This document shows, in pieces, positions 7,352 to 58,877 of a stretch of 63,506 nucleotides of DNA (position 1 is its first letter; every line of letters starts with the position of its first letter). The notes beneath the pieces were generated by a model that had not been told where the DNA came from, did no database searches, and saw nothing but the letters and a program-made list of their open reading frames with translations. Position numbers and translations under genes: made by a program. This stretch comes from an uncultured Mollicutes bacterium (GTDB lineage Bacteria > Bacillota_I > Bacilli_A > RF39 > UBA660), in the NCBI GenBank assembly GCA_900543055.1, contig UQQI01000002.1:1-63506 (forward strand). Direction: 5' to 3'.

Positions 7352-8749
7352 CTAATCCTTAATTATTTCATAAATAGTTCCTTCACGAGTATCAATTAGC
7401 TTAATTCCCTCTTTTAATAAATTATCTCTAATTTCATCTGCTAAAACATAATTTTTATTTTTCTTTGCTTCATTTCTTTCAGCAATTTTTTCTTTTATAT
7501 ACGCATCATTTTCTAGATTTTCTTCTTCATTACTAATTAAATTAAGAGATAAAACTTCATCAAATGATGTAATTAATGATATTTTAGTCTTATCTGACAC
7601 ATAAGAATCTTTAAGTAATTCATAAATAACAGTTATAGCATTTGCAGTATTTAAATCATTAGATATTTCTAAAATAAATTTATTATTGTATATTTTGTAT
7701 AAATTTCTATCTAATTCGCCACTATCCGAAAGCGATTTGATTTTATTTCTCAATTTCTTTAATGTAGACTCTGCTTGAGTAAGCGCATCATAAGAAAAAA
7801 CTAATTGCTTCCTATAATGAGAATTTAAACACATAAATCTAAAGGCTAAAGGATCAAATCCATTTTCTTTTAATTTAGTTACAGTAAGTATAGCTCCTTT
7901 AGATTTACTCATTTTACCAGTTTGATCTAAAAGATGTTCATTATGAAACCAGTAATTACACCACTTATGACCAAGATAAGCTTCACTTTGTGCTATTTCA
8001 TTTGTATGATGTGGAAAAATATTATCAACTCCTCCACCATGAATATCTAAATGTTCTCCTAAATATTTTATAGAAATTCCACTACATTCTATATGCCATC
8101 CAGGATAACCTTTTCCCCAAGGAGAATCCCATAACAATTCATGATTTTCAAACTTAGATGTTGTAAACCACAAAGCAAAATCTGCTTGATTCCTCTTATT
8201 TGAATCTTCTTCTACTCCATCTCTTGCGCCAACAACCAAATCATCTTCTTGATGATTAGTTAAAACATAATAGTCATTAAGTTTACTAATGTCAAAATAT
8301 ACATTTCCACCAGAAATATAAGCATATTCATCTTTTAGTAATTTTTCTATTATCTTAATATACATATCAATATTTTCAGTAGCAGGAGAAACTATTTCTG
8401 GCATTTTACAGTTAACAAGACTAAAATCTTCAAAAAAAGCATCTGTATAAAATTTAGCTATTTCCATTGAAGACTTATGTTCTCTTTTTCTAGCAACTTC
8501 CATCTTATCTTCACCGGAATCAGAATCACTTGTTAAATGTCCAACATCAGTTATATTCATTGCACGTGTAACATCATACCCTAAATATCTTAATGTTTTA
8601 TCTAAGATATCATGCCCTATATAATTTCTAATATTACCAATATGAGCATAATGATAAACTGTAGGTCCACAAGTATATAATTTTACTTTTCCATCTTCAT
8701 TAGGAACAAATTCTTCCACTTTCCTTGTTAACGTATTGTATAATTTCAT
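7352..8749 (-). CDS. cysS: Cysteinyl-tRNA synthetase
   Basis: 465 aa with a HIGN-type motif (YHYAHIGNIRNY), KMSKS and the WHIECS zinc site. Confidence 0.95.
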   Translation of the reverse strand: MKLYNTLTRKVEEFVPNEDGKVKLYTCGPTVYHYAHIGNIRNYIGHDILDKTLRYLGYDVTRAMNITDVGHLTSDSDSGEDKMEVARKREHKSSMEIAKFYTDAFFEDFSLVNCKMPEIVSPATENIDMYIKIIEKLLKDEYAYISGGNVYFDISKLNDYYVLTNHQEDDLVVGARDGVEEDSNKRNQADFALWFTTSKFENHELLWDSPWGKGYPGWHIECSGISIKYLGEHLDIHGGGVDNIFPHHTNEIAQSEAYLGHKWCNYWFHNEHLLDQTGKMSKSKGAILTVTKLKENGFDPLAFRFMCLNSHYRKQLVFSYDALTQAESTLKKLRNKIKSLSDSGELDRNLYKIYNNKFILEISNDLNTANAITVIYELLKDSYVSDKTKISLITSFDEVLSLNLISNEEENLENDAYIKEKIAERNEAKKNKNYVLADEIRDNLLKEGIKLIDTREGTIYEIIKD

Positions 8750-15892: not shown

Positions 15893-15966
15893 AGAATCAC
15901 TCCCAATAATTTTCTAAGACTTGCTTATTATATTATATATTAATAATTTTTTCAATGAAAAAGGAA

Positions 15967-16398
15967 TTAATAGTTAACTCCCATTTTATATTCTCTTCTT
16001 TTCATTTTTACTAACATTTCCTTTGTTTCTTTAAATACATAATCTCTATTCGTCGAAAAATCTAAGTTTAAAATTTTATTAAACATTAACTCTATATAAA
16101 CATCATCCAAATTAATATCAACTGGATGTACGATATCTGAACTATACTTATTTAAAAAATCTAATTTTACATAAGAATATTTTTCCTCATCTAATACTAA
16201 AAAAAGGAAAATAGTAATATTAATCTTTATTATATAAAGCTGTTTTTACTCATTAGTTATAGGAGAAGTATAAACAACACTACCATTTGTAATATCTTTA
16301 AATACAACTATTGATAGTCTATTTTTCTTATTATTCATATAATTTTTATTATTAACCATAATGTACTCTCGAACTACAAGATTCCATGGTTTTAACAT
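15967..16398 (-). pseudogene. Unknown ORF of 142 sense codons interrupted by one in-frame TAA (16246..16248)
   Basis: Hand translation gives 50 codons from the ATG at 16398, then TAA, then 92 more sense codons in the same frame to the TAA at 15967-15969. No other ORF fills this 520-bp gap. Confidence 0.35.
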
Positions 16399-16415
16399 AT
16401 ATATAATTTATTCCT

Positions 16416-26305: not shown

Positions 26306-27826
26306 TTACTTTGTAGTATCAATTCTCATAAATAATGGAGATGGTTGACCTAAAGAATAATTGTTATCGTCCAAATAACTAAAATCTTTTTTATCATTTG
26401 ATAATTGACTAAATATTTTATCACTAGTATTAGTTAAGAATGGAGCCAAGAAAACTGCACTTACTCTAATAGCTTCTAATAAATTATATAAGACAGTTTC
26501 AAGTCTATCTTTTAGAGCATCATCCTTAGCAAGAACCCATGGAGTAGTTTCATCTATATACTTATTACTTAATCTTAATAAATTAAATATTTCAGTAATA
26601 GCATCACAAATTTGTAATTTATCCATCTTTTCAGTTACTTTACTATCTAAATTATTAATATTCATAATAAAGTCTGTATCAATATCATCATATACTTTCT
26701 TATTAGTAACTTTTCCATCAAAATATTTATTTGCCATAGAAATAGTCCTTTGAACTAAATTTCCTAAAATATTGGCAAGATCACCATTTATTCTTTCAAT
26801 TAATAAATCTTTTGAAAAAACACCATCACTTGCAAATGGAATTTCATGTAAGAAGTAATATCTAACAGCATCCACACCAAATTCATTGACTAAATCATCT
26901 GCGTATAACACATTTCCTTTTGATTTACTCATCTTACCATCACTCATTATAACCCAAGGATGTCCAAATACTTGTTTAGGTAATGGTAAATCTAAACTCA
27001 TCAAGAAACATGGCCAATAAATAGTATGAAATCTAATAATATCTTTACCAATTACATGAATGTCAGCTGGCCAATACTTCTTAAACATATCAGTTTGACT
27101 ATCTATATCATATCCAATATTAGTAATATAATTTGTCAATGCATCAAGCCAAACATAAACTACATGCTTAGGATCAAAATCGACTGGTATTCCCCAACTA
27201 AATGATGTACGTGAAACGCATAAATCTTGTAATCCAGGTTTAATAAAATTATTAATCATTTCATTTTTTCTTGCTACTGGTTGAATAAACTCAGGATGCT
27301 CTTCAATGTATTTTTCAAGTCTATCTTGATATTTACTTAATTTAAAGAAGTAAGCTTCCTCACATTTTTCTTCAACATCACGTCCACAATCAGGACATTT
27401 ACCATCTAACAATTGACTTTCTGTCCAAAAAGATTCACAAGGAGTACAATATAACCCTTTATATTCTCCTTTGTAAATATCCCCTTTGTCATACATATAT
27501 TTAAAAATATGTTGTACTACTTTCTCATGACTTTCATCTGTTGTTCTAACAAATTTATCATAACTTGTGTTCATAATATCCCAAATATTCTTAATTTCAC
27601 TTGAAACATTATCAACAAATTCCTTAGGACTTATACCTGATTCTTTTGCTTTAATCTCTATTTTCTCACCATGTTCATCAGTACCAGTTTGAAAATAAAC
27701 ATCATATCCCTTTAACCTTTTAAATCTAGCAATTGCATCAGAAAGAACTATCTCATAAGTATTTCCAATATGAGGCTTTCCTGAAGTATATGCAATAGCT
27801 GTTGAAATATAAAATTTTTCTTTCAT
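26306..27826 (-). CDS. metG: Methionyl-tRNA synthetase (short form, no C-terminal tRNA-binding domain)
   Basis: GKPHIGNTYE (HIGH), KMSKSKGN and a CPDCG zinc knuckle. 506 aa. Confidence 0.95.
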   Translation of the reverse strand: MKEKFYISTAIAYTSGKPHIGNTYEIVLSDAIARFKRLKGYDVYFQTGTDEHGEKIEIKAKESGISPKEFVDNVSSEIKNIWDIMNTSYDKFVRTTDESHEKVVQHIFKYMYDKGDIYKGEYKGLYCTPCESFWTESQLLDGKCPDCGRDVEEKCEEAYFFKLSKYQDRLEKYIEEHPEFIQPVARKNEMINNFIKPGLQDLCVSRTSFSWGIPVDFDPKHVVYVWLDALTNYITNIGYDIDSQTDMFKKYWPADIHVIGKDIIRFHTIYWPCFLMSLDLPLPKQVFGHPWVIMSDGKMSKSKGNVLYADDLVNEFGVDAVRYYFLHEIPFASDGVFSKDLLIERINGDLANILGNLVQRTISMANKYFDGKVTNKKVYDDIDTDFIMNINNLDSKVTEKMDKLQICDAITEIFNLLRLSNKYIDETTPWVLAKDDALKDRLETVLYNLLEAIRVSAVFLAPFLTNTSDKIFSQLSNDKKDFSYLDDNNYSLGQPSPLFMRIDTTK

Positions 27827-27844: not shown

Positions 27845-28065
27845 AAATTACTATAAACATAAGGACGAATAATATCGCGGTACCACCTTATTTTATAATA
27901 ATTAATATTATACACTCATATAGTTAACGCCTATCTACGTCTATACCTACATATCGATATAGAAGTTCAGAAGCCATACTTTTATAAAATAATTATACTC
28001 ATTTTCACCAACAGAGTTCTCTAAAATAATCTTTCTTATAAAGCTCTTCATCAAAACATTTAAAA
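27845..28065 (-). promoter_or_regulatory. T-box leader (Met, AUG specifier) controlling metG
   Basis: The minus strand carries AGAGA...GGTGAAA stem I motifs. There is a specifier-loop candidate AAAGUAUGGC, and the conserved T-box AAGGTGGTACCGCG (reverse complement of 27876-27889). A U-rich tract precedes the metG RBS. Confidence 0.8.
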
Positions 28066-39320: not shown

Positions 39321-39340
39321 TTAATTCCTCCAAAATAAAA

Positions 39341-39413
39341 AGTGCACATGAAAGGAGGATCTTAAGGCTGCTATTTTCCAATCCTGACCTATTTCAATCA
39401 CTTTCATTGCACG
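39341..39413 (-). ncRNA. ffs: Signal recognition particle RNA, minimal 4.5S-like form
   Basis: The minus strand reads GUGCAAUGAAAG...AGGUCAGGAUUGGAAAAUAGCAGCC...CUUUCAUGUGCAC. It has the conserved helix 8 motifs (GGUCAGG, GGAA tetraloop, AGCAGCC) and a closing stem with one bulge. A U-run follows, and a TATAAT lies about 8-10 nt upstream (39424-39429). Confidence 0.75.
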
Positions 39414-39666
39414 AATACATTGTATTATAAACTTAACAAAAAGTAAATACTTTTTTCTTTTTTTATAAGATAACTGTAAAAATCTGCTATATTTCTAAAC
39501 ATTTTGAGTTAATAAAAAATTTCATCTCTATATATAACAAAAATTGTGATTTTCTATTTTATAAATTTCAAATATTAGAATTCATTACTTTTTTTATACT
39601 TTTGATGTTGATATTTATTTTTTTCTTATCTATTATCACATAACATATTAAGATATTAACTTTTGT

Positions 39667-39675
39667 TGTGGAAAA
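39667..39675 (-). promoter_or_regulatory. DnaA-box-like 9-mer TGTGGAAAA (TTTTCCACA), directly abutting parS-1
   Basis: One mismatch from TTATCCACA. Identical to the box form repeated in the dnaA-flanking regions. Confidence 0.55.
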
Positions 39676-39691
39676 TGTTTCACGTGAAACA
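39676..39691. promoter_or_regulatory. parS: parS site 1, TGTTTCACGTGAAACA (perfect)
   Basis: Perfect 16-bp palindrome matching the Firmicute parS consensus TGTTNCACGTGAAACA. The palindrome extends to 18 bp with its flanks. Confidence 0.85.
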
Positions 39692-39854
39692 TTGGAAATT
39701 TAATTTTAATTAATACATAGTTTACATTTTATAATTAATACTTCTAAAAGAAATAAAACTAAAGCAGTATATCATTATTGTACTCAATAAATGTTAATAA
39801 AACTTTTAGTTTTAATACTTACAACTTAGTTATAAACTTAACCTGTGAATTTAA

Positions 39855-39870
39855 TGTTTCACGTGAAACA
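39855..39870. promoter_or_regulatory. parS: parS site 2, TGTTTCACGTGAAACA (perfect)
   Basis: Perfect 16-mer inside the 24-bp palindrome TTAATGTTTCACGTGAAACATTAA. Confidence 0.85.
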
Positions 39871-39968
39871 TTAAATGTTGAAAATAACAATATTGATATA
39901 ATTAACAAATTATTTACAAAAATTTATAAAATATTTTCTAATTATATGAATCACTTATAAACTCTTAC

Positions 39969-39977
39969 TGTGGAAAA
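39969..39977 (-). promoter_or_regulatory. DnaA-box-like 9-mer TGTGGAAAA, 1 nt from parS-3
   Basis: Same 9-mer as at 39667, 47693 and 47756. Confidence 0.55.
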
Positions 39978-39978
39978 A

Positions 39979-39994
39979 GGTTTCACGTGAAACT
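39979..39994. promoter_or_regulatory. parS: parS site 3, GGTTTCACGTGAAACT (outermost positions diverge)
   Basis: The 14-bp core GTTTCACGTGAAAC is perfect. The two outer bases differ from consensus. Confidence 0.7.
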
Positions 39995-40015
39995 ATTACA
40001 AAATTTAACTTTTTC

Positions 40016-40024
40016 TGTGAATAA
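40016..40024 (-). promoter_or_regulatory. DnaA-box-like 9-mer TGTGAATAA (TTATTCACA), 3 nt before NBS-1
   Basis: One mismatch from TTATCCACA. Confidence 0.5.
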
Positions 40025-40027
40025 AAT

Positions 40028-40041
40028 ATTTCCCGGGAAAT
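40028..40041. promoter_or_regulatory. Noc-binding-site-type palindrome 1, ATTTCCCGGGAAAT
   Basis: Perfect 14-bp palindrome (16 bp with its T/A flanks). From memory, it equals the B. subtilis NBS consensus. Confidence 0.75.
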
Positions 40042-40093
40042 AATTTTAAAATTTACATATTTTTACAAATAAATGACAGAATTTTATTAAATA

Positions 40094-40179
40094 AATGCAT
40101 TAAAAATTAAAAATGCATTCTCGTAAATTTAAATTATATATTATTCACCTATTAATCTTTAAATTCATTAGAATGCATT
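40094..40179. repeat. Three copies of the 8-bp palindrome AATGCATT between the two NBS sites
   Basis: Copies at 40094-40101, 40112-40119 and 40172-40179. No known factor assigned. Confidence 0.6.
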
Positions 40180-40194
40180 TTATAAATTATTGAT

Positions 40195-40202
40195 ATTTCC
40201 CG
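40195..40202. promoter_or_regulatory. NBS half site ATTTCCCG
   Basis: The left half of the NBS palindrome, 4 nt upstream of NBS-2. Confidence 0.4.
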
Positions 40203-40206
40203 AATT

Positions 40207-40220
40207 ATTTCCCGGGAAAT
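40207..40220. promoter_or_regulatory. Noc-binding-site-type palindrome 2, ATTTCCCGGGAAAT
   Basis: Perfect copy in the same extended context, TATTTCCCGGGAAATAATTTTAA, as site 1. Confidence 0.75.
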
Positions 40221-40233
40221 AATTTTAATTGTT

Positions 40234-40261
40234 GAAAAAAGAAGAAATTATTTTTCTTCTT
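40234..40261 (-). terminator. Probable intrinsic terminator overlapping the gyrA stop codon
   Basis: 9-bp stem AAGAAGAAA (40239-40247) / TTTCTTCTT (40253-40261), followed by a short U-run on the minus-strand transcript. Confidence 0.45.
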
Positions 40262-42713
40262 CTATTTCTTGATTTTCGTTATCTAAATTTTCTTCAGTAT
40301 TTTCTCTTTCTACTAAAGCAACAGTTGTAACCTTTTGATTATCTTTCAAGTTCATTAATCTTACACCTTGAGTTGCTCTCTTCAAAGTAGATACTTGTTC
40401 AAGCGGTAATTTAATAATTATGCCACTATCTGTCATTATCATTAAATCTAATTGTTCATTAGGTGCTAATGTCTTTAATGAAACCATACTACCATTTTTA
40501 TCTGTAATATTAAGTGCTTTAACACCCTTACTTCCTCTATGAGTTAATCTATATTCATCAATAACAGTTTGTTTTCCATAACCATTTTCTGTAACAATTA
40601 ATACCATTTGATTTGATTCTACAACTTCTGCACCTACAACTATAGCTCCATCTAATTCCATTCCTTTTACACCAGAACTACTTCTTCCCATAGATCTGAC
40701 TTCATTTTCATCAAATCTTACCATACGTCCATTGCTTGCTCCTATAACAATTTCATTCTTTCCACAAGTCTTTTTAACGCTTATAAGTTCGTCATTTTCT
40801 TTTAAAACTATAGCGATTTTTCCACCTTTACGAATACTATCAAATTCGTCTATTGGTGTACGTTTTACAATACCATTCTTAGTAGCAAACATTAAGAATT
40901 TAGTAACATCATCATTTTGTTTTACACTCAACATCGAACTAATGTTCTCATTTTTCTCTAAAGGTAATAAATTAATTATTGGTAAACCTTTAGACTGTCT
41001 TGAAAATTCTGGAACTTCATATCCTTTCATTCTGTAAACTCTACCTTTATTTGAGAAGAATAAAAGATGATCATGTGTATTCATTGATAATATTTTTTCC
41101 ACAAAGTCTTCTTCATTAGTAGACATACCTTTAATACCTACTCCTCCTCTATTTTGAGTTTTGTAAGTATCAGCTCTTAATCTCTTTATATAACCATTAT
41201 TAGTTAAATTAATAATTATATCTTCTTCTGGAATTAAAGACTCATCTTCTATATATTCTATTGCTGTCATATCTATATTTGTACGTCTCTCATCACCATA
41301 TTTTTGCTTTATTTCTAATAATTCATTTTTAATAACTTCTAATATTTTTTCATCACTAGCTAAAATTGATTTTAATTCAGCAATTGTTTTTAATAATTCA
41401 TTTAACTCATTTTCAATCTTATCTCTCTCTAATCCAGTTAAACGACGTAGTTTCATTTCAAGTATTGCATTAGCTTGAATTTCAGTCAATCCAAAACCTT
41501 CCATTAATCCTTTTCTAGCTTCTTCATCCGATTTAGAACCTCTAATCACTTTAATAACAGCATCAATATTATCTAAAGCTATTTTTAAACCTTCTAATAT
41601 ATGTACTCTCTTTTCAGCAACATCTAAATCAAATTTTGTTCTTCTTATAATGACTTCTTTTTGATAATCAATATATTTTACAATTATATCTTTTAAACCT
41701 AATGTTTTTGGAACACCTTGATCAAGCATCAAGAATATAATTCCATAAGATGTTTGAAATGCAGTATGTTTATATAATTTATTTAAAACAACTTGTGCGT
41801 TTGCATCTTTTTTTAATGTAATCGTTATTTTAATGCCATTTTTTAAATCTGAATGATAATCAGCAATACCTTCAATAGTTTTATTATGAACTAATTCAGC
41901 CACCTTATTTTTTAATTCTAAAGTATTAACACCATATGGAACTTCATCAATTATAATTTGTTGTTTTCCATTCTGTTCCTCAATAGTAGCCTTACTTCTA
42001 ATAGTAATACTACCTCTACCTGTTTCATATGCTTTTCTAATACCACTATTACCTAGAATAATTGCTCCTGTTGGAAAATCTGGTCCTTTAATATATTTCA
42101 TTAAACCATCTAAATCAATATCAGGATTATCAATATATGCTACACAACCATCTATAACTTCACCTAAATTATGAGGAGGTATATTAGTTGCCATACCAAC
42201 AGCAATACCAGTAGTTCCATTAACTAAAATATTAGGAAATCTAGAAGGTAAAACTTCAGGCTCTCTTTCACTCTCATCAAAATTAGGGGTAAAATTAACC
42301 GTATCTTTATTTATATTTCTTAACAATTCTAGTGATATTTTCGAAAGTCTTGATTCAGTATAACGCATTGCAGCTGCACCATAACCTTCAATATTACCAA
42401 AATTACCATGTCCATCAACAAGCATATATCTGTAAGAAAAATCTTGTGCCATTCTTACCATTGCTTCATAAATTGAAGAATCACCATGTGGATGATATTT
42501 ACCCATAACGTCTCCAACTATTCTAGCACTCTTTTTATGAGGTTTATCTGGTGTGTAACCTGATTCATACATAGAATATAAAATTCGTCTATGAACAGGC
42601 TTTAAACCATCTCTAAGGTCAGGTAAAGCACGAGCAACAATAACACTCATTGAATACTCTAAAAATGAATCCTGAACCTCTTTTACAATATTATTCTTTT
42701 CTAATCTATCCAT
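40248..42713 (-). CDS. gyrA: DNA gyrase subunit A
   Basis: 821 aa. [17 protein letters not shown], the active-site AAMRYTE and a beta-pinwheel CTD. Follows gyrB. Confidence 0.97.
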
Positions 42714-45870: not shown

Positions 45871-45895
45871 AAAAATAGCTAAATTAGCTATTTTT
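45871..45895 (-). terminator. Intrinsic terminator overlapping the stop of the ComK-like gene
   Basis: Perfect 11-bp stem AAAAATAGCTA / TAGCTATTTTT with a 3-nt loop. U-run on the minus-strand transcript. Confidence 0.65.
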
Positions 45896-46345
45896 TCTTT
45901 TTGATAACACATTTTTTAACCTCGTTGCTCTAGCAATTTGATTTTCCATTGATCGAAGTGAGCACGGAACTATAATTTCCTTCTTGTTGTCAAAAACAAT
46001 TCTCGTATTGCTCTCATCTACTCTATAGATATTTTCGACTCTTCCAACAGAAATCCACGCACAATCGTCGGCTCTAGGTGATGTTGTAGGAAATGCAATT
46101 AATTCATTTGTATCAGCAATAACTATTGGCACTTTATATTCGGCTCCTAGTATTTCTTTAGCTCCCTTCTTTCTGCCTTCATAGCTACTACCAAAATATT
46201 TACAACTATCTTCCATAATATTTAAAGGATTATCGTCAATTATATAACGACTATCATCTTCATATATTAGGCTAGACTCCTTTCCGTTTGGCAAAATTGC
46301 CAATGTTCCCTTATTAAACTCGTATAAATTCTTGTTATTTAACAT
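45884..46345 (-). CDS. comK: ComK-family competence transcription factor (short form, 153 aa)
   Basis: YEFNKGTLAILP, SCKYFGSSYEGRKKG, ELIAFPTTSPRADDCAWIS and SMENQIARATRLKN align with my recollection of B. subtilis ComK motifs. ATG at 46345 after GGGGGGAG. Confidence 0.8.
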   Translation of the reverse strand: MLNNKNLYEFNKGTLAILPNGKESSLIYEDDSRYIIDDNPLNIMEDSCKYFGSSYEGRKKGAKEILGAEYKVPIVIADTNELIAFPTTSPRADDCAWISVGRVENIYRVDESNTRIVFDNKKEIIVPCSLRSMENQIARATRLKNVLSKRKNS

Positions 46346-46494
46346 ATTATCAATTCTCCCCCCAAACAAGAGCTAATGTGCTCTTGCATAATAATCATAT
46401 AACAATAAGTTTTACACTTTTGTAGAATTTTGACGAAAGAACACATAAAATTTTCTTTCTATATAAATTATTATTAATTTTTATGATTTTTTTG

Positions 46495-47653: not shown

Positions 47654-47776
47654 ATATTATTCCTTCTTTCTTATTTATATTTATATTATAGCTGTGGAAA
47701 AAGTTGAAAACTCAAAAATTATCTTATTTTTCAACAAAAATGTATTCACATAACCTGTGGAAAAGCATCTTAAAAC
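47654..47776. promoter_or_regulatory. oriC: oriC, dnaA-dnaN part: DnaA boxes plus an AT-rich candidate unwinding element
   Basis: TGTGGAAAA at 47693-47701 and 47756-47764. Weaker TTTTCAACA at 47728-47736. A pure A/T 20-mer, TTATTTATATTTATATTATA, at 47671-47690. Confidence 0.7.
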
Positions 47777-49171
47777 TCACATGTTTTTCACAACCCCAAT
47801 ATCTTTCTTTAATTTTTCTATTATATTAGCTAAATCTTTATTAACTTTTATCTCATTTTCAATTTTTTCAACTGAATGCATTACTGTAGAATGGTCTTTA
47901 CCACCAAATTCAGTACCAATCTTAGGAAAACTCTCATTTGTCATTACTCTACATAAATACATAGCAATTTGCCGTGGAAAAGAAATATTTGAACTCCTCT
48001 TTTTACTTCTTATATCATCAACTGTGATTTGGAAATATTCAGATACGATTTTTTGTATCCTATGAATATCATTTTTCTCTCCTATTCCTTTACTAATAAA
48101 GTCTTTTAAAGCATCAATTGCTAAATCAAGATTAATTTTTTCTTTTCCCATAATAGTTGAATATGCAATTAATCTAGTAATAGAACCTTCTAGATTTCTA
48201 ACATCCGGTCCTATATTTGATGCAATATACTCTATTACATCATCTGGTATTTCTTGCTCAACATTTTCTGCAACTATTTTTTTCTTTAAAATTTCCATTC
48301 TAAGAGAGAAATCTGGTGGGAATATATTAACTGTTAATCCCCAGCAAAATCTTGTTCTTAAACGATCTTCTAATAATTTTAAATCATCTGGAGATCTATC
48401 TGATGAAATAATAATTTGCTTATTATCATTATATAAATTATTAAATGTATGGAAAAATTCTTGTTGCGATTGTGTTGCTCCTCCTAAAAATTGTATATCA
48501 TCAATTAATAAAACATCTATATTTCTATATTTATCTTTAAAGAAATCAACATAATTAAAATTAGTTCCTTTATCATCTTTTCTTGTAGATTTAACAAATT
48601 CTTCTCTAAATTGTTCGCTTGTAACATAAAGGACTCTTTTATCAGAATTTTCAACTATATAGTTTCCTATAGCATGCATTAAATGGGTCTTCCCTAACCC
48701 ACTATTTCCAAATAGAAATAAAGGATTATATATTTTTCCAGGATTCTCTGCTACAGAAAGAGCAGCCGCTCTTGCGAATTTGTTTGTATTTCCTACAATA
48801 AAATTATCAAAAGTATAGTTTTTCTTTAAATTAGAATTAATATTAAATTGTTTATTAGGTGGTGATTTATCTTCTAGTTTTTTCTTTTCTTCTAACATTT
48901 CTTTTTCAACTATAATTGAGGATATTTCTTCTTCCAATAAAAATAATAGTTCATATGAAGAATCAGTTAATTCATTTAGTTTGTTAGATATTGTCTCATA
49001 ATAATTCTCTTGCAAATGTTTTTTGTGGATTGGCATAGGAACTATTATATAAGCTTTTTCATCTTTTAGTTCATACAATTTTGTTTCCTTAAACCAAGTT
49101 TGATAAGAGATGGATGAGATTTCATCTTTTATTTGTTCAAGTATTTTAGACCATAGAATATCTACATTCAA
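47777..49171 (-). CDS. dnaA: Chromosomal replication initiator protein DnaA
   Basis: Probable TTG start at 49171, 8 nt after GGGGAG, giving (M)NVDILWSKILEQIK like other DnaA N-termini; the track ORF runs to 49204. Walker A GNSGLGKTHL and the C-terminal DnaA-box-binding domain (HSTVMHS) are present. Confidence 0.93.
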   Translation of the reverse strand: MNVDILWSKILEQIKDEISSISYQTWFKETKLYELKDEKAYIIVPMPIHKKHLQENYYETISNKLNELTDSSYELLFLLEEEISSIIVEKEMLEEKKKLEDKSPPNKQFNINSNLKKNYTFDNFIVGNTNKFARAAALSVAENPGKIYNPLFLFGNSGLGKTHLMHAIGNYIVENSDKRVLYVTSEQFREEFVKSTRKDDKGTNFNYVDFFKDKYRNIDVLLIDDIQFLGGATQSQQEFFHTFNNLYNDNKQIIISSDRSPDDLKLLEDRLRTRFCWGLTVNIFPPDFSLRMEILKKKIVAENVEQEIPDDVIEYIASNIGPDVRNLEGSITRLIAYSTIMGKEKINLDLAIDALKDFISKGIGEKNDIHRIQKIVSEYFQITVDDIRSKKRSSNISFPRQIAMYLCRVMTNESFPKIGTEFGGKDHSTVMHSVEKIENEIKVNKDLANIIEKLKKDIGVVKNM

Positions 49172-49204
49172 TTTACCATCTCCCCATAAGTAATAATCAA
49201 TCAA

Positions 49205-49603
49205 ACCTATTCTACATTAAAACAATTAAAAATGAAAGTAAAAAAACATAAAAAAACAAATTAATTTTGTAGATTAAATTTGATGTGTCGATATATACAA
49301 TAACATATTTTTTCATTTTATTGAATAAAAAAATAATTAAATTTTTTTTATTGCAAAAACAAGATACTTTTCAACATAATTTTACACTTCAAAAACATAA
49401 AGAAAATAGGTTTCGACATTTTCCACCAATATTCCACAAAGTTTTCAACAATTGAAGTGTATATATAATAAGGTTAAAAATAAGTTTTCCACATTTTCCA
49501 CAGAAAAGTTATTAATAGGTAACAAAAAAGTTTTAAACAAACTTGTGGAAATTGTTAATAACTAAAAAAAATAATTAAAAAAAAATAAATTAACAACTTT
49601 TAT
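49205..49603. promoter_or_regulatory. oriC: oriC, dnaA-upstream part: DnaA-box cluster at the strand-switch point
   Basis: Tandem abutting TTTTCCACA-TTTTCCACA at 49485-49502. TGTGGAAAT at 49544-49552. Weaker boxes at 49419-49427, 49430-49438 and 49442-49450. Long A/T tracts at 49205-49400. Confidence 0.75.
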
Positions 49604-57169: not shown

Positions 57170-57967
57170 ATGGGAAAGGTTATATCTTTAGTTAATCAAA
57201 AAGGTGGAGTAGGAAAAACTACCACAAGTATTAATCTTTCTGCATCATTAGCAGTATTAGGGAAAAGAGTTTTATTAATAGACTTAGACCCTCAAGGAAA
57301 TACAACTACTGGTGTAGGAATAAATAAAGGAGAGATAGAAAAAAGTATATATGATGTTTTAATTGGAGAGTGTAATGCAACAGAAGCTATGATTAAAACA
57401 AAATATAAAGGACTATATGTTCTACCAGCAACAATAAATTTAGCGGGAATTGATGCTGAGTTATTAGAAAAAAGTAGAACACAAAATGGATTCAAAAAAG
57501 GTGAACAATTAAAAAATAGTTTAGCTGATTTAAAGGATAGTTTTGACTATATTATAATAGATTGTCCACCATCTCTAGGTGTAATTACAACCAATGCGTT
57601 AACAGCATCAAACTCAGTAATCATCCCTGTACAATGTGAATTCTTTGCATTAGAGGGAATTACTCAGTTATTAAAAACAATAATGTTGGCCCAAAAAGGA
57701 TTAAATCCAACATTAGATATAGAAGGGGTACTATTGACTATGTTAGATTCAAGAACAAATCTTGGGTTTGAAGTTGTAGAAGATATAAGAAGATTCTTTA
57801 AAGAAAAAGTATATAATACAATAATACCAAGACTAGTAAGATTAACAGAAGCTCCATCTCATGGAGAACCAATAGTAGCATATGACCCAAAAAGTAGAGG
57901 GTCAGAGGCCTATATCAATCTAGCAAAGGAAGTGATTGAAAGAAATGAAGGAAATGGAAATAAATAA
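57170..57967 (+). CDS. soj: Chromosome partitioning ATPase ParA/Soj
   Basis: Deviant Walker A NQKGGVGKTTT, and DCPPSLG. Confidence 0.95.
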   Translation: MGKVISLVNQKGGVGKTTTSINLSASLAVLGKRVLLIDLDPQGNTTTGVGINKGEIEKSIYDVLIGECNATEAMIKTKYKGLYVLPATINLAGIDAELLEKSRTQNGFKKGEQLKNSLADLKDSFDYIIIDCPPSLGVITTNALTASNSVIIPVQCEFFALEGITQLLKTIMLAQKGLNPTLDIEGVLLTMLDSRTNLGFEVVEDIRRFFKEKVYNTIIPRLVRLTEAPSHGEPIVAYDPKSRGSEAYINLAKEVIERNEGNGNK

Positions 57968-58877
57968 TATTCATGAAAATGAACACGAAGGAGAAATACC
58001 TAAAAGAAGAGCATTAGGAAGAGGTTTGGAAGAATTATTTAGTAGTGAAGTACTTGATTATAGTTCAGTTGAAAAACAAATTGTAGAAGAAACGTCAAAA
58101 GATGAAATAGTAAATATAAAATTAAGTGAACTTAGAAGCAATCCATATCAGCCAAGAAAAATTTTTGATGAAAAAGCTTTGGAAGAACTTTCCAATTCAA
58201 TTAAAGAACATGGAGTTTTCCAACCAATAATTGTAAAAAAATCAATTAAAGGTTATGAAATAATAGCAGGTGAGCGAAGAGTTAAAGCATCACTTATGGC
58301 AGGATTAACTGAAATTCCAGCAATTGTAAGAGATTTTAATGATACTCAAATGATGGAAATTGCTTTGCTTGAAAACTTACAAAGAGAAAACTTAACAGCT
58401 ATAGAAGAAGCCAACGCTTATAAAAAATTACAAGATACTCTTGGCTTAACACAAGAACAATTAGCAAATAGGCTTGGAAAAAGTAGGAGTCACGTAACTA
58501 ATATGTTAGGTCTTCTAAACTTACCAGAAACAATCCAAAGTGATATCAATGATAAAAAAATCACTATGGGACACGCAAGAGTTCTAAGTAAATTACAAGA
58601 TAAAGTCCAGCAAGCAGAATTAGAAGAAAAAGTTATTTCAGAAGGAATGAGTGTTAGAGAATTAGAAGAATTAACACAAGCACCAAAAATAATAAAAACA
58701 AACCCACAGAAACCAAAAATAAGAGAAAATAATGAATATAGTTACTTACAAGAGGAACTAAGTGAAAAATTAGGCACAAAAGTTATAGTTAAGAAAAACA
58801 AATTGGAAATAAGTTTTGTTAATGGAAATGATTTGAATAGACTATTAGAATTAATGCATATAGAGGTTGGAAAGTAA
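57945..58877 (+). CDS. spo0J: Chromosome partitioning protein ParB/Spo0J
   Basis: ALGRGLEELF, NPYQPRK and GERRVKA. The HTH region KSRSHVTNMLGLL...GHARVL is Spo0J-type. The start is uncertain (TTG 57936, ATG 57945 or ATG 57954) and overlaps the soj end. Confidence 0.9.
   Translation: MKEMEINNIHENEHEGEIPKRRALGRGLEELFSSEVLDYSSVEKQIVEETSKDEIVNIKLSELRSNPYQPRKIFDEKALEELSNSIKEHGVFQPIIVKKSIKGYEIIAGERRVKASLMAGLTEIPAIVRDFNDTQMMEIALLENLQRENLTAIEEANAYKKLQDTLGLTQEQLANRLGKSRSHVTNMLGLLNLPETIQSDINDKKITMGHARVLSKLQDKVQQAELEEKVISEGMSVRELEELTQAPKIIKTNPQKPKIRENNEYSYLQEELSEKLGTKVIVKKNKLEISFVNGNDLNRLLELMHIEVGK

Follow-up and report, generated by a model that had tools for sequence, protein, structure and literature searches.

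A composite, origin-proximal array of predicted ParB and Noc loading sites in uncultured gut Bacilli

In the characterised systems, dimers of ParB and of its paralogue Noc nucleate on a palindrome, bind cytidine triphosphate (CTP), close into clamps and spread along the DNA for kilobases (PMC8429893, PMC7383237, PMC5540599). The Noc of Staphylococcus aureus spreads 8-10 kb round a site and restrains DnaA-dependent initiation, and its sites are biased to the chromosome's origin-proximal half (PMC5540599). In model species the Noc-binding sites (NBS) are scattered round the chromosome (PMC8429893, PMC7383237). They are missing near the terminus. Membrane binding and nucleoid occlusion by canonical Noc require a 10-residue amphipathic helix together with helix alpha-2 (PMC8429893), while the residues of the NBS type are Q173, K179 or K184, and R201 in the numbering of Caulobacter ParB (PMC7383237). 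Here, the region between gyrA and the gene for the small signal recognition particle (SRP) RNA was analysed in a contig of an uncultured Mollicutes bacterium (UQQI01000002.1; the whole 63.5-kb stretch analysed, 63,506 nucleotides, is called the window below). A prediction made from the sequence alone had placed in this region an island of three ParB sites (parS) and two NBS, most of them beside DnaA-box-like 9-mers. The feature is real, highly non-random and deeply conserved. As judged from its sites and from the genes encoded nearby, it is probably a composite array close to the origin, on which two paralogous proteins of the ParB family would load.

Much of the locus resembles that of Bacillus subtilis and S. 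aureus. The parS and NBS of the window, TGTTTCACGTGAAACA and TATTTCCCGGGAAATA, are identical to the published 16-bp consensus sites (PMC7383237), the gene order rsmG-noc-soj-spo0J beside the replication origin (oriC) is the same, and both the specificity residues (R..G against Q-K-x-R) and the residues of the CTP motifs are conserved. Unlike in these species, both kinds of site crowd together here, usually in alternation, in a single intergenic array whose sites may number 17 or more. Unlike canonical Noc, the paralogue of this lineage lacks the amphipathic helix and helix alpha-2 and carries an insertion of roughly 130-500 residues before the C-terminal domain. Initiator sites inside a centromere region are also found in Caulobacter crescentus, where boxes in the parS region are bound by DnaA (Mera et al. 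2014, reviewed in PMC6399470), and at rctA/parS2 of Vibrio cholerae, which is bound by RctB. A single ParB, and no paralogue of Noc type, is involved at those loci, whereas here the box lies 0-5 nt from the palindromes, in some species between NBS and parS, and occurs in part of the lineage only. Tandem amplification has a parallel in F sopC, where a 43-bp unit that contains a 16-bp SopB palindrome is repeated twelve times, and clusters of parS sites on the chromosome are known from Corynebacterium, Streptomyces, Myxococcus and Caulobacter. As in the present locus, a ParB-family palindrome is amplified there into tandem units or tight clusters near the origin, which form one large partition complex; unlike them, the units described here would serve two paralogues of mutually exclusive specificity rather than one ParB-family protein. 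The DnaA-box clusters of B. subtilis and datA of Escherichia coli likewise hold boxes outside the origin but near oriC, from which the present arrays differ in that boxes are few (0-6 per array), not universal and subordinate to the palindromes. A full-text search of the literature library used returned no description of interleaved parS/NBS arrays or of parS-NBS pairing, in line with the earlier statement that such an arrangement was not known to be described; the one paper there to mention DnaA boxes, parS, Noc and NBS together was the S. aureus study. The sites and proteins belong to the known ParB-parS and Noc-NBS families, and their arrangement differs from the models.

In the window, the gap between the gyrA stop codon (40248) and the SRP RNA spans 824 bp and is, as had been claimed, the longest stretch free of open reading frames (ORFs), reaching 927 bp with the SRP RNA included. 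Two of its palindromes match the 16-bp inverted repeat by which parS is recognised, TGTTNCACGTGAAACA, and a third copy is perfect over the 14-bp core. All three parS sites lie where the original prediction had put them (Table 1), though the palindromes that enclose the two perfect copies, given there as 18 and 24 bp, in fact measure 20 and 28 bp. Both NBS and the half site were likewise found as placed, the two perfect copies agreeing with the full 16-bp consensus and not just with the 14-mer first recognised (PMC7383237). The half site is probably a decayed copy. A parS scan of the window with at most three mismatches gave four matches against 0.2 expected; the fourth, at 27593 with three mismatches, was dismissed, lying inside a gene. 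Outside the gap, no further parS or NBS with at most two mismatches was found in the 63.5 kb, and CCCGGG occurs solely in the two NBS, as had been noticed. NBS-1 starts 48 bp past the start of parS-3, which is a typical spacing of parS-NBS pairs in relatives. A hidden gene in the gap was ruled out, the sole ORF being a spurious one of 60 amino acids. Rfam found nothing in the gap besides the SRP RNA, and neither a terminator-like site nor an excess of promoter-like sites was present there. The next-longest ORF-free stretches of the window, 757-1420 (664 bp) and 15914-16415 (502 bp), hold no tRNA gene and no Rfam match at gathering score.

Table 1. Positions of the island, its sites and the related genes in the window.
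Feature	Position	Strand	Remarks
SRP RNA, small	39329..39423	-	Downstream boundary of island; Rfam
DnaA box TTTTCCACA, forward reading TGTGGAAAA	39667..39675	-	Abuts parS-1 (0 nt); same 9-mer as the four boxes flanking dnaA
parS-1	39676..39691	.	Perfect 16-bp ParB site TGTTTCACGTGAAACA; inside 20-bp palindrome 39674-39693
Weak box-like AAATTCACA(G), forward reading TGTGAATTT	39844..39852	-	2 nt from parS-2; 3 mismatches; no weight alone
parS-2	39855..39870	.	Perfect 16-bp ParB site TGTTTCACGTGAAACA; inside 28-bp perfect palindrome 39849-39876
DnaA box TTTTCCACA(G), forward reading TGTGGAAAA	39969..39977	-	1 nt from parS-3
parS-3	39979..39994	.	GGTTTCACGTGAAACT; 14-bp core perfect, outer base of either arm altered
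DnaA-box variant TTATTCACA(G), forward reading TGTGAATAA	40016..40024	-	Between parS-3 and NBS-1; 2 nt from 16-bp NBS-1
NBS-1	40027..40042	.	Perfect 16-bp consensus TATTTCCCGGGAAATA; 14-mer ATTTCCCGGGAAAT at 40028-40041
NBS half site ATTTCCCG	40195..40202	.	Directly before NBS-2
NBS-2	40206..40221	.	Perfect 16-bp NBS TATTTCCCGGGAAATA; 14-mer ATTTCCCGGGAAAT at 40207-40220; 22-bp palindrome AATTATTTCCCGGGAAATAATT
gyrA	40248..42713	-	Upstream boundary; array follows gyrA stop in nearly all relatives
dnaA (47777-49204) with oriC boxes	47693..49502	-	TTTTCCACA at 47693, 47756, 49485 and 49494; GC-skew flip
Noc-family ParB paralogue, 426 amino acids	55793..57073	+	Q-K-S-R, GERR, ENLQR; Noc-type C-terminal domain
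Soj/ParA ATPase	57170..57967	+	Follows the Noc-family gene
ParB/Spo0J	57936..58877	+	R-M-N-G residues; N-terminal KRRALGRGLEELF peptide; ParB C-terminal dimerisation domain

Conservation of the island was analysed in relatives collected by a DnaA-centred search with one genome per species, which gave 80 loci (1.28 Mb, taken with 10-kb flanks) whose DnaA is 61-99% identical to the window protein. The relatives are uncultured gut Bacilli labelled Bacilli, Tenericutes or Erysipelotrichaceae, and include Candidatus Faecimonas. Among the 49 loci that reach at least 300 bp past gyrA, parS and/or NBS are present in the gap after gyrA in 46 and both kinds in 39, with both kinds just past tadA in three more; the comparison of orthologous gyrA gaps thus shows the island to be conserved. 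With at most one mismatch allowed, the arrays, 28 kb in all, hold 152 parS and 145 NBS, that is 297 sites or roughly 10 per kb, against 1 parS and 13 NBS in the other 1.25 Mb of this origin-proximal DNA. The comparable density of palindromes elsewhere that the original prediction had named as a sign against it was not seen in these loci. Perfect 16-mers number 84 for parS and 139 for NBS in the 80 loci, where chance would give about 3e-4 per perfect 16-mer per 1.28 Mb. The palindromes remain intact while the spacers diverge within and between species; shared 12-mers between spacers are uninformative on kinship in such AT-rich DNA.

Many of the arrays are regular tandems with one parS and one NBS per unit, such as seven of each at 127 bp (locus L058), six of each at 76 bp (L059), six of each at 62 bp (L043) and five of each at about 197 bp (L069). 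Unit lengths of 62, 76, 97, 127 and 197 bp all carry one site of either kind, and the largest array (L082) comprises nine parS and eight NBS. Neighbouring sites are of unlike kind in 176 cases, against 124 expected under random order, and the nearest parS-NBS spacing per species is mostly 25-76 bp from start to start. The equal centre spacing of 179 bp reported for parS-1 to parS-2 and for NBS-1 to NBS-2 is real in the window; the suggested phasing at 17 helical turns was rejected, since parS-1 and parS-2 are 178 bp apart in the other strains of this species (L001-L003) and the unit periods of other species range from about 62 to more than 300 bp.

Metagenome contigs were moreover scanned with an exact pattern, parS 8-38 nt from NBS, which gave at least 120 matches. 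Among the matches listed, all those with recognisable neighbours lie in the gyrA/tadA/dnaX context, with GyrA 49-94% identical to that of the window. The same pattern had zero matches in viral contigs, and a phage or plasmid origin of the array was rejected on this ground. The array is present in a circular long-read metagenome-assembled genome (MAG; L054, OZ006970.1), where it is still running at the end of the flank, and in about 170 independent contigs. Array lengths are probably underestimated, because MAG assemblies break on tandem repeats; contigs end inside the array in L008, L034, L043, L052, L053, L058, L063, L068, L069, L073 and L076. The SRP RNA also follows the array in L069 and in L192, a metagenome contig of 9295 bp with an overall GC content of 48%. 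In the latter, the array, SRP RNA, tadA and dnaX part are AT-rich, while the left part is high in GC and holds a 751-residue ORF on the other strand in place of gyrA, and the contig may be chimeric or the locus rearranged. Furthermore, in L094, L104, L111, L114, L115, L182 and others an isolated perfect NBS recurs 1.5-2 kb beyond the array, directly after the conserved portion of dnaX. This appears to be a second NBS position that part of the lineage conserves, and it is absent from the dnaX of the window.

The genes for RsmG, the 426-residue Noc-family protein, Soj and ParB lie on the far side of oriC from the island, the last three at the places originally predicted, and the two ParB-family proteins carry the specificity residues expected of them. 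At the four specificity positions defined for ParB (PMC7383237), the window protein reads R-M-N-G, which is the parS type; among relatives the pattern was readable in 27 of 29 ParB proteins, with R at the first position in all 27 and G at the fourth in 22. The Noc paralogue reads Q-K-S-R and so is of NBS type, its permissive lysine standing at one of the two positions where it is allowed, and the GERR and ENLQR motifs are kept in both proteins. For the N-terminal and DNA-binding domains of the paralogue, the best alignment was to solved structures of Noc (E = 3.5e-66). In the Noc-like proteins of related loci, the specificity residues were readable in 39 of 45, of which 36 have Q-K-x-R and 2 a variant.

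The earlier naming of this gene as noc therefore holds for its NBS-type residues; the protein is not a canonical Noc, having no N-terminal helix and scoring 288.6 bits against the NCBIfam Noc model TIGR04285, under the cut-off of 315. It starts at the equivalent of residue 23-24 in the solved Noc chains, and both the N-terminal amphipathic membrane-targeting helix of about 10 residues and helix alpha-2 are absent from the window paralogue. Two codons upstream of its ATG the reading frame is closed by a stop codon, and a hidden N-terminal helix was ruled out by in-frame stop codons just upstream. The C-terminal 40-55 residues alone match positions 202/215-255 of TIGR04285 (E = 3e-6 to 5e-3). 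Between the DNA-binding domain and the C-terminus is inserted a linker of about 170-200 residues with conserved short motifs. In the linker (residues about 205-380) of the window protein and of the Noc-like ORFs of L005-L082, islands were noted at KFINYGEI (263-270), ID(I/V)..K.NA.DIN (290-303), A.LD(S/N)LLN (309-316), F..PAE (323-328) and DYF..PDL.....P (344-357). Such islands could be partner- or membrane-binding motifs, and A.LD(S/N)LLN could form a short amphipathic helix, since its hydrophobic residues fall at i, i+3, i+4 and i+7.

The combination of short N-terminus and long linker is found in all 45 Noc-like proteins of the related loci. In a homologue search with the paralogue, the best matches listed were near-identical proteins that fall into two species clusters. 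Among clusters at 50% identity, the best 150 representatives range from 221 to 798 residues (median 471), with a median of 16 residues ahead of the PNRFQPR motif; the Noc of B. subtilis has about 39 residues there. Among these representatives, the N-terminus is short in 144 of the 148 in which the motif was located, two more having no recognisable motif, and Q-K-x-R was read in 71 of 73, with 77 unreadable. Helix-less Noc with a long linker is thus a large subfamily, of at least 150 clusters at 50% identity, which current Noc models and annotation rules do not separate from canonical Noc.

As for DnaA, three of the four box-like 9-mers described in the island are boxes of oriC type that adjoin palindromes. 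The fourth, at 39844-39852, is the weak one of Table 1 and belongs to a shared flank module, AACTnnnnYTGTGrA. The GC skew flips at about 49-50 kb, around dnaA, and the island lies 7.5-9 kb from dnaA/oriC, as placed by this flip and by the DnaA boxes, at the same distance as in relatives. Exact TTTTCCACA occurs in 10 copies in the window against 1.0 expected, four of them flanking dnaA, while perfect TTATCCACA has zero copies there. The boxes of the island are of the oriC type of their own organism, including the following G, because the same TTTTCCACA(G) 9-mer flanks dnaA. Two exact TTTTCCACA and one TTATTCACA stand within 360 bp outside oriC, as in a DnaA-box cluster (DBC). Upstream of dnaA, a tandem pair TTTTCCACATTTTCCACAG is followed by GAAAAGTTATTAATA (window 49485-49520), and two CTGTGGAAAA boxes are present in the dnaA-dnaN interval (47693-47764); the flank after the island boxes, for example TTATTCACAGAAAAAGTTAAAT, resembles the oriC flank. 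Four more exact TTTTCCACA, at 8010, 9238, 37760 and 41095, lie outside both oriC and island, apparently in genes.

In an unbiased test of 8-mers in palindrome-masked arrays, TGTGGAAA was the one that recurred in most species (17 of 48 arrays, against 0.8 expected), with other 8-mers of the DnaA-box family and remnants of decayed NBS half sites ranking next. The 9-mer TTWTCCACA is present in 17 of the 48 arrays as well. The claim that boxes form part of the array is borne out in part: they recur beyond chance, in only about a third of arrays. Adjacency of box and palindrome extends to the relatives: for 22 of 43 boxes a palindrome edge is 0-5 nt away, where permutation gives a mean of 5.5 and none of 2000 permutations reached 22. 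Two geometries can be distinguished. In the first, the box abuts parS (window, L005, L020, L023, L031 and L072). In the second, NBS, TTWTCCACA and parS form a compact module of 43-45 bp, TATTTCCCGGGAAATA-ATTTTATCCACAA-TGTTTCACGTGAAACA, with the box 2-4 nt from both palindromes. This module was found in L061 and, among 120 metagenome loci, in at least 20. The window's parS-3, TTATTCACA and NBS-1 represent a looser form of this module in the same orientation. The DnaA box is therefore a frequent accessory in a sub-lineage and no defining part of the array.

Taken as a composite loading array, the region would operate as follows. ParB would nucleate on parS and the Noc-derived paralogue on an NBS a few tens of base pairs away. 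By analogy with the characterised ParB and Noc, each dimer would bind CTP at its own site, close into a clamp and slide into the shared flanks, so that the two clamp populations together would give rise to a single mixed nucleoprotein domain, 7.5-9 kb from oriC. ParB would serve Soj/SMC-driven segregation of the origin. The Noc part, in which the membrane-targeting helix is absent, probably works through the long linker, and may label or anchor the DNA round the origin or hold initiation back. Boxes of oriC type sit against or between the palindromes in part of the lineage, the organism of the window included, and there the loading of clamps and the occupancy of DnaA probably affect one another, whether by competition or by cooperation.

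Several observations weigh against this composite array. The order of sites in the window is P-P-P-N-N (P, parS; N, NBS), a degenerate arrangement with no clean tandem repeat, and Tandem Repeats Finder reported no repeat unit spanning the sites there; what the window holds is a decayed form of the array that is regular in relatives. One kind of site only is found in the gap of L071, L077 and L025 (parS) and of L063 (NBS, on a contig that ends in the array). Both parS-NBS spacing and unit period vary widely across species, and because the geometry is not fixed, no obligatory direct contact between ParB and Noc is indicated. Isolated perfect NBS occur outside the arrays at about one per 30-100 kb of flanking DNA, which suggests that the Noc paralogue probably also has wider, B. 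subtilis-like scattered sites. About two thirds of the arrays have no DnaA box, the most regular ones among them (L058, L054, L069, L070 and L043). Finally, the helix that the paralogue lacks is the one required for canonical nucleoid occlusion.

It is conceivable, though in our judgement unlikely, that both kinds of site are functional and merely share one large, tolerant non-coding gap near the origin without coupling, their units being amplified by slippage. The gap is indeed the longest non-coding stretch of the window, the distance between site types is not fixed, L025, L064 and L037 have one type in the gap and the other 1-2 kb away, and alternation can arise from tandem duplication alone. 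Such co-habitation accords poorly, however, with the presence of both kinds in the same gap in 39 of 49 species, with clearly different unit lengths that each pair one parS with one NBS, with a nearest parS-NBS distance that is usually below 60 bp, and with the 43-45-bp NBS-box-parS module conserved across several species. Moreover, parS sites in model Firmicutes are scattered singly and commonly lie inside genes, so lack of room is no strong constraint. Coupling is favoured over mere co-habitation because the pairing is conserved across unit types; co-habitation stays alive because of the variable spacing and the few single-type arrays.

A less probable alternative, to which we attach little weight, is that the array works as a boundary, in which site-bound dimers of one paralogue would stop the clamps of the other, giving a dense patch or insulating gyrA and the SRP RNA. 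DNA-bound proteins block ParB-CTP clamps, the sites are close-packed, and a DnaA box 2-4 nt from both palindromes would act likewise. Nevertheless, the sequence gives no distinction of such a roadblock from simple co-loading, arrays of a single kind exist (L071, L063), and one strong block would be enough, making up to 17 sites needless. It is still harder to credit that the region is primarily a DnaA-box cluster, a titration site of the datA or DBC kind with the palindromes secondary. The three boxes of the window, of exact oriC type, and the lead of box 8-mers in the recurrence test speak for it, but most arrays have no TTWTCCACA, box density in the arrays is 1.0 per kb, only twice that of flanking DNA which includes oriC, and the universally conserved element is the palindromes, not the boxes.

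Chance, a mobile repeat of the miniature inverted-repeat transposable element (MITE) or repetitive extragenic palindrome (REP) kind, a CRISPR-like array and an assembly artefact, which an AT-rich repetitive region where many MAG contigs break might suggest, were rejected: perfect 16-mers exceed expectation about 10^5-fold and are exact consensus sites of two proteins encoded nearby, the array is confined to a single syntenic locus in about 2 Mb of related sequence, it recurs in the circular MAG and the independent contigs, no Rfam family other than the SRP RNA matches in the gap, and two alternating palindromes with spacers themselves repeated and no cas among the flanking genes do not make a CRISPR array.

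As a tentative extension of the composite loading array, it is possible that the Noc paralogue is no nucleoid-occlusion factor but a second centromere-bound clamp, and that this helix-less Noc joins ParB and, in some members of the lineage, DnaA in a three-protein hub tying together initiation, segregation and, via the Noc linker, division or anchoring. The arrangement could also preserve the state just after the duplication of parB to noc, in which two substitutions per half site would have turned neighbouring parS copies into NBS, at a time when Noc had yet to gain its membrane helix and dispersed sites.

Elsewhere in the window, a ComK-family gene at 45884-46369 on the reverse strand (Pfam ComK, E = 1e-42) lies between dnaN and recF. 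It interrupts an otherwise classical dnaA-dnaN-recF-gyrB-gyrA block and is present in other strains of the species. Rfam also identified a T-box leader (27858-28063) and a ribosomal protein L10 leader (2393-2506), both on the reverse strand and both ordinary.

For annotation, the array provides a sharp marker of the origin region in widespread gut bacteria, and its repeats explain the frequent assembly breaks just after gyrA. The finding is of high interest for work on ParB and Noc and on the bacterial cell cycle, with its proposed function argued by analogy. ParB and Noc are the two founding CTP-gated DNA clamps and have been treated as having separate sites and jobs; the conserved array sets their predicted loading sites tens of base pairs apart, sometimes with a DnaA box in between. 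It may thus serve as a ready-made substrate on which the loading, collision, mixing or mutual exclusion of two clamp populations can be studied, together with the influence of initiator occupancy on these events. Furthermore, a Noc subfamily of this size lacks the helix on which the nucleoid-occlusion model depends, and Noc-family proteins therefore probably have a further, not yet described function.

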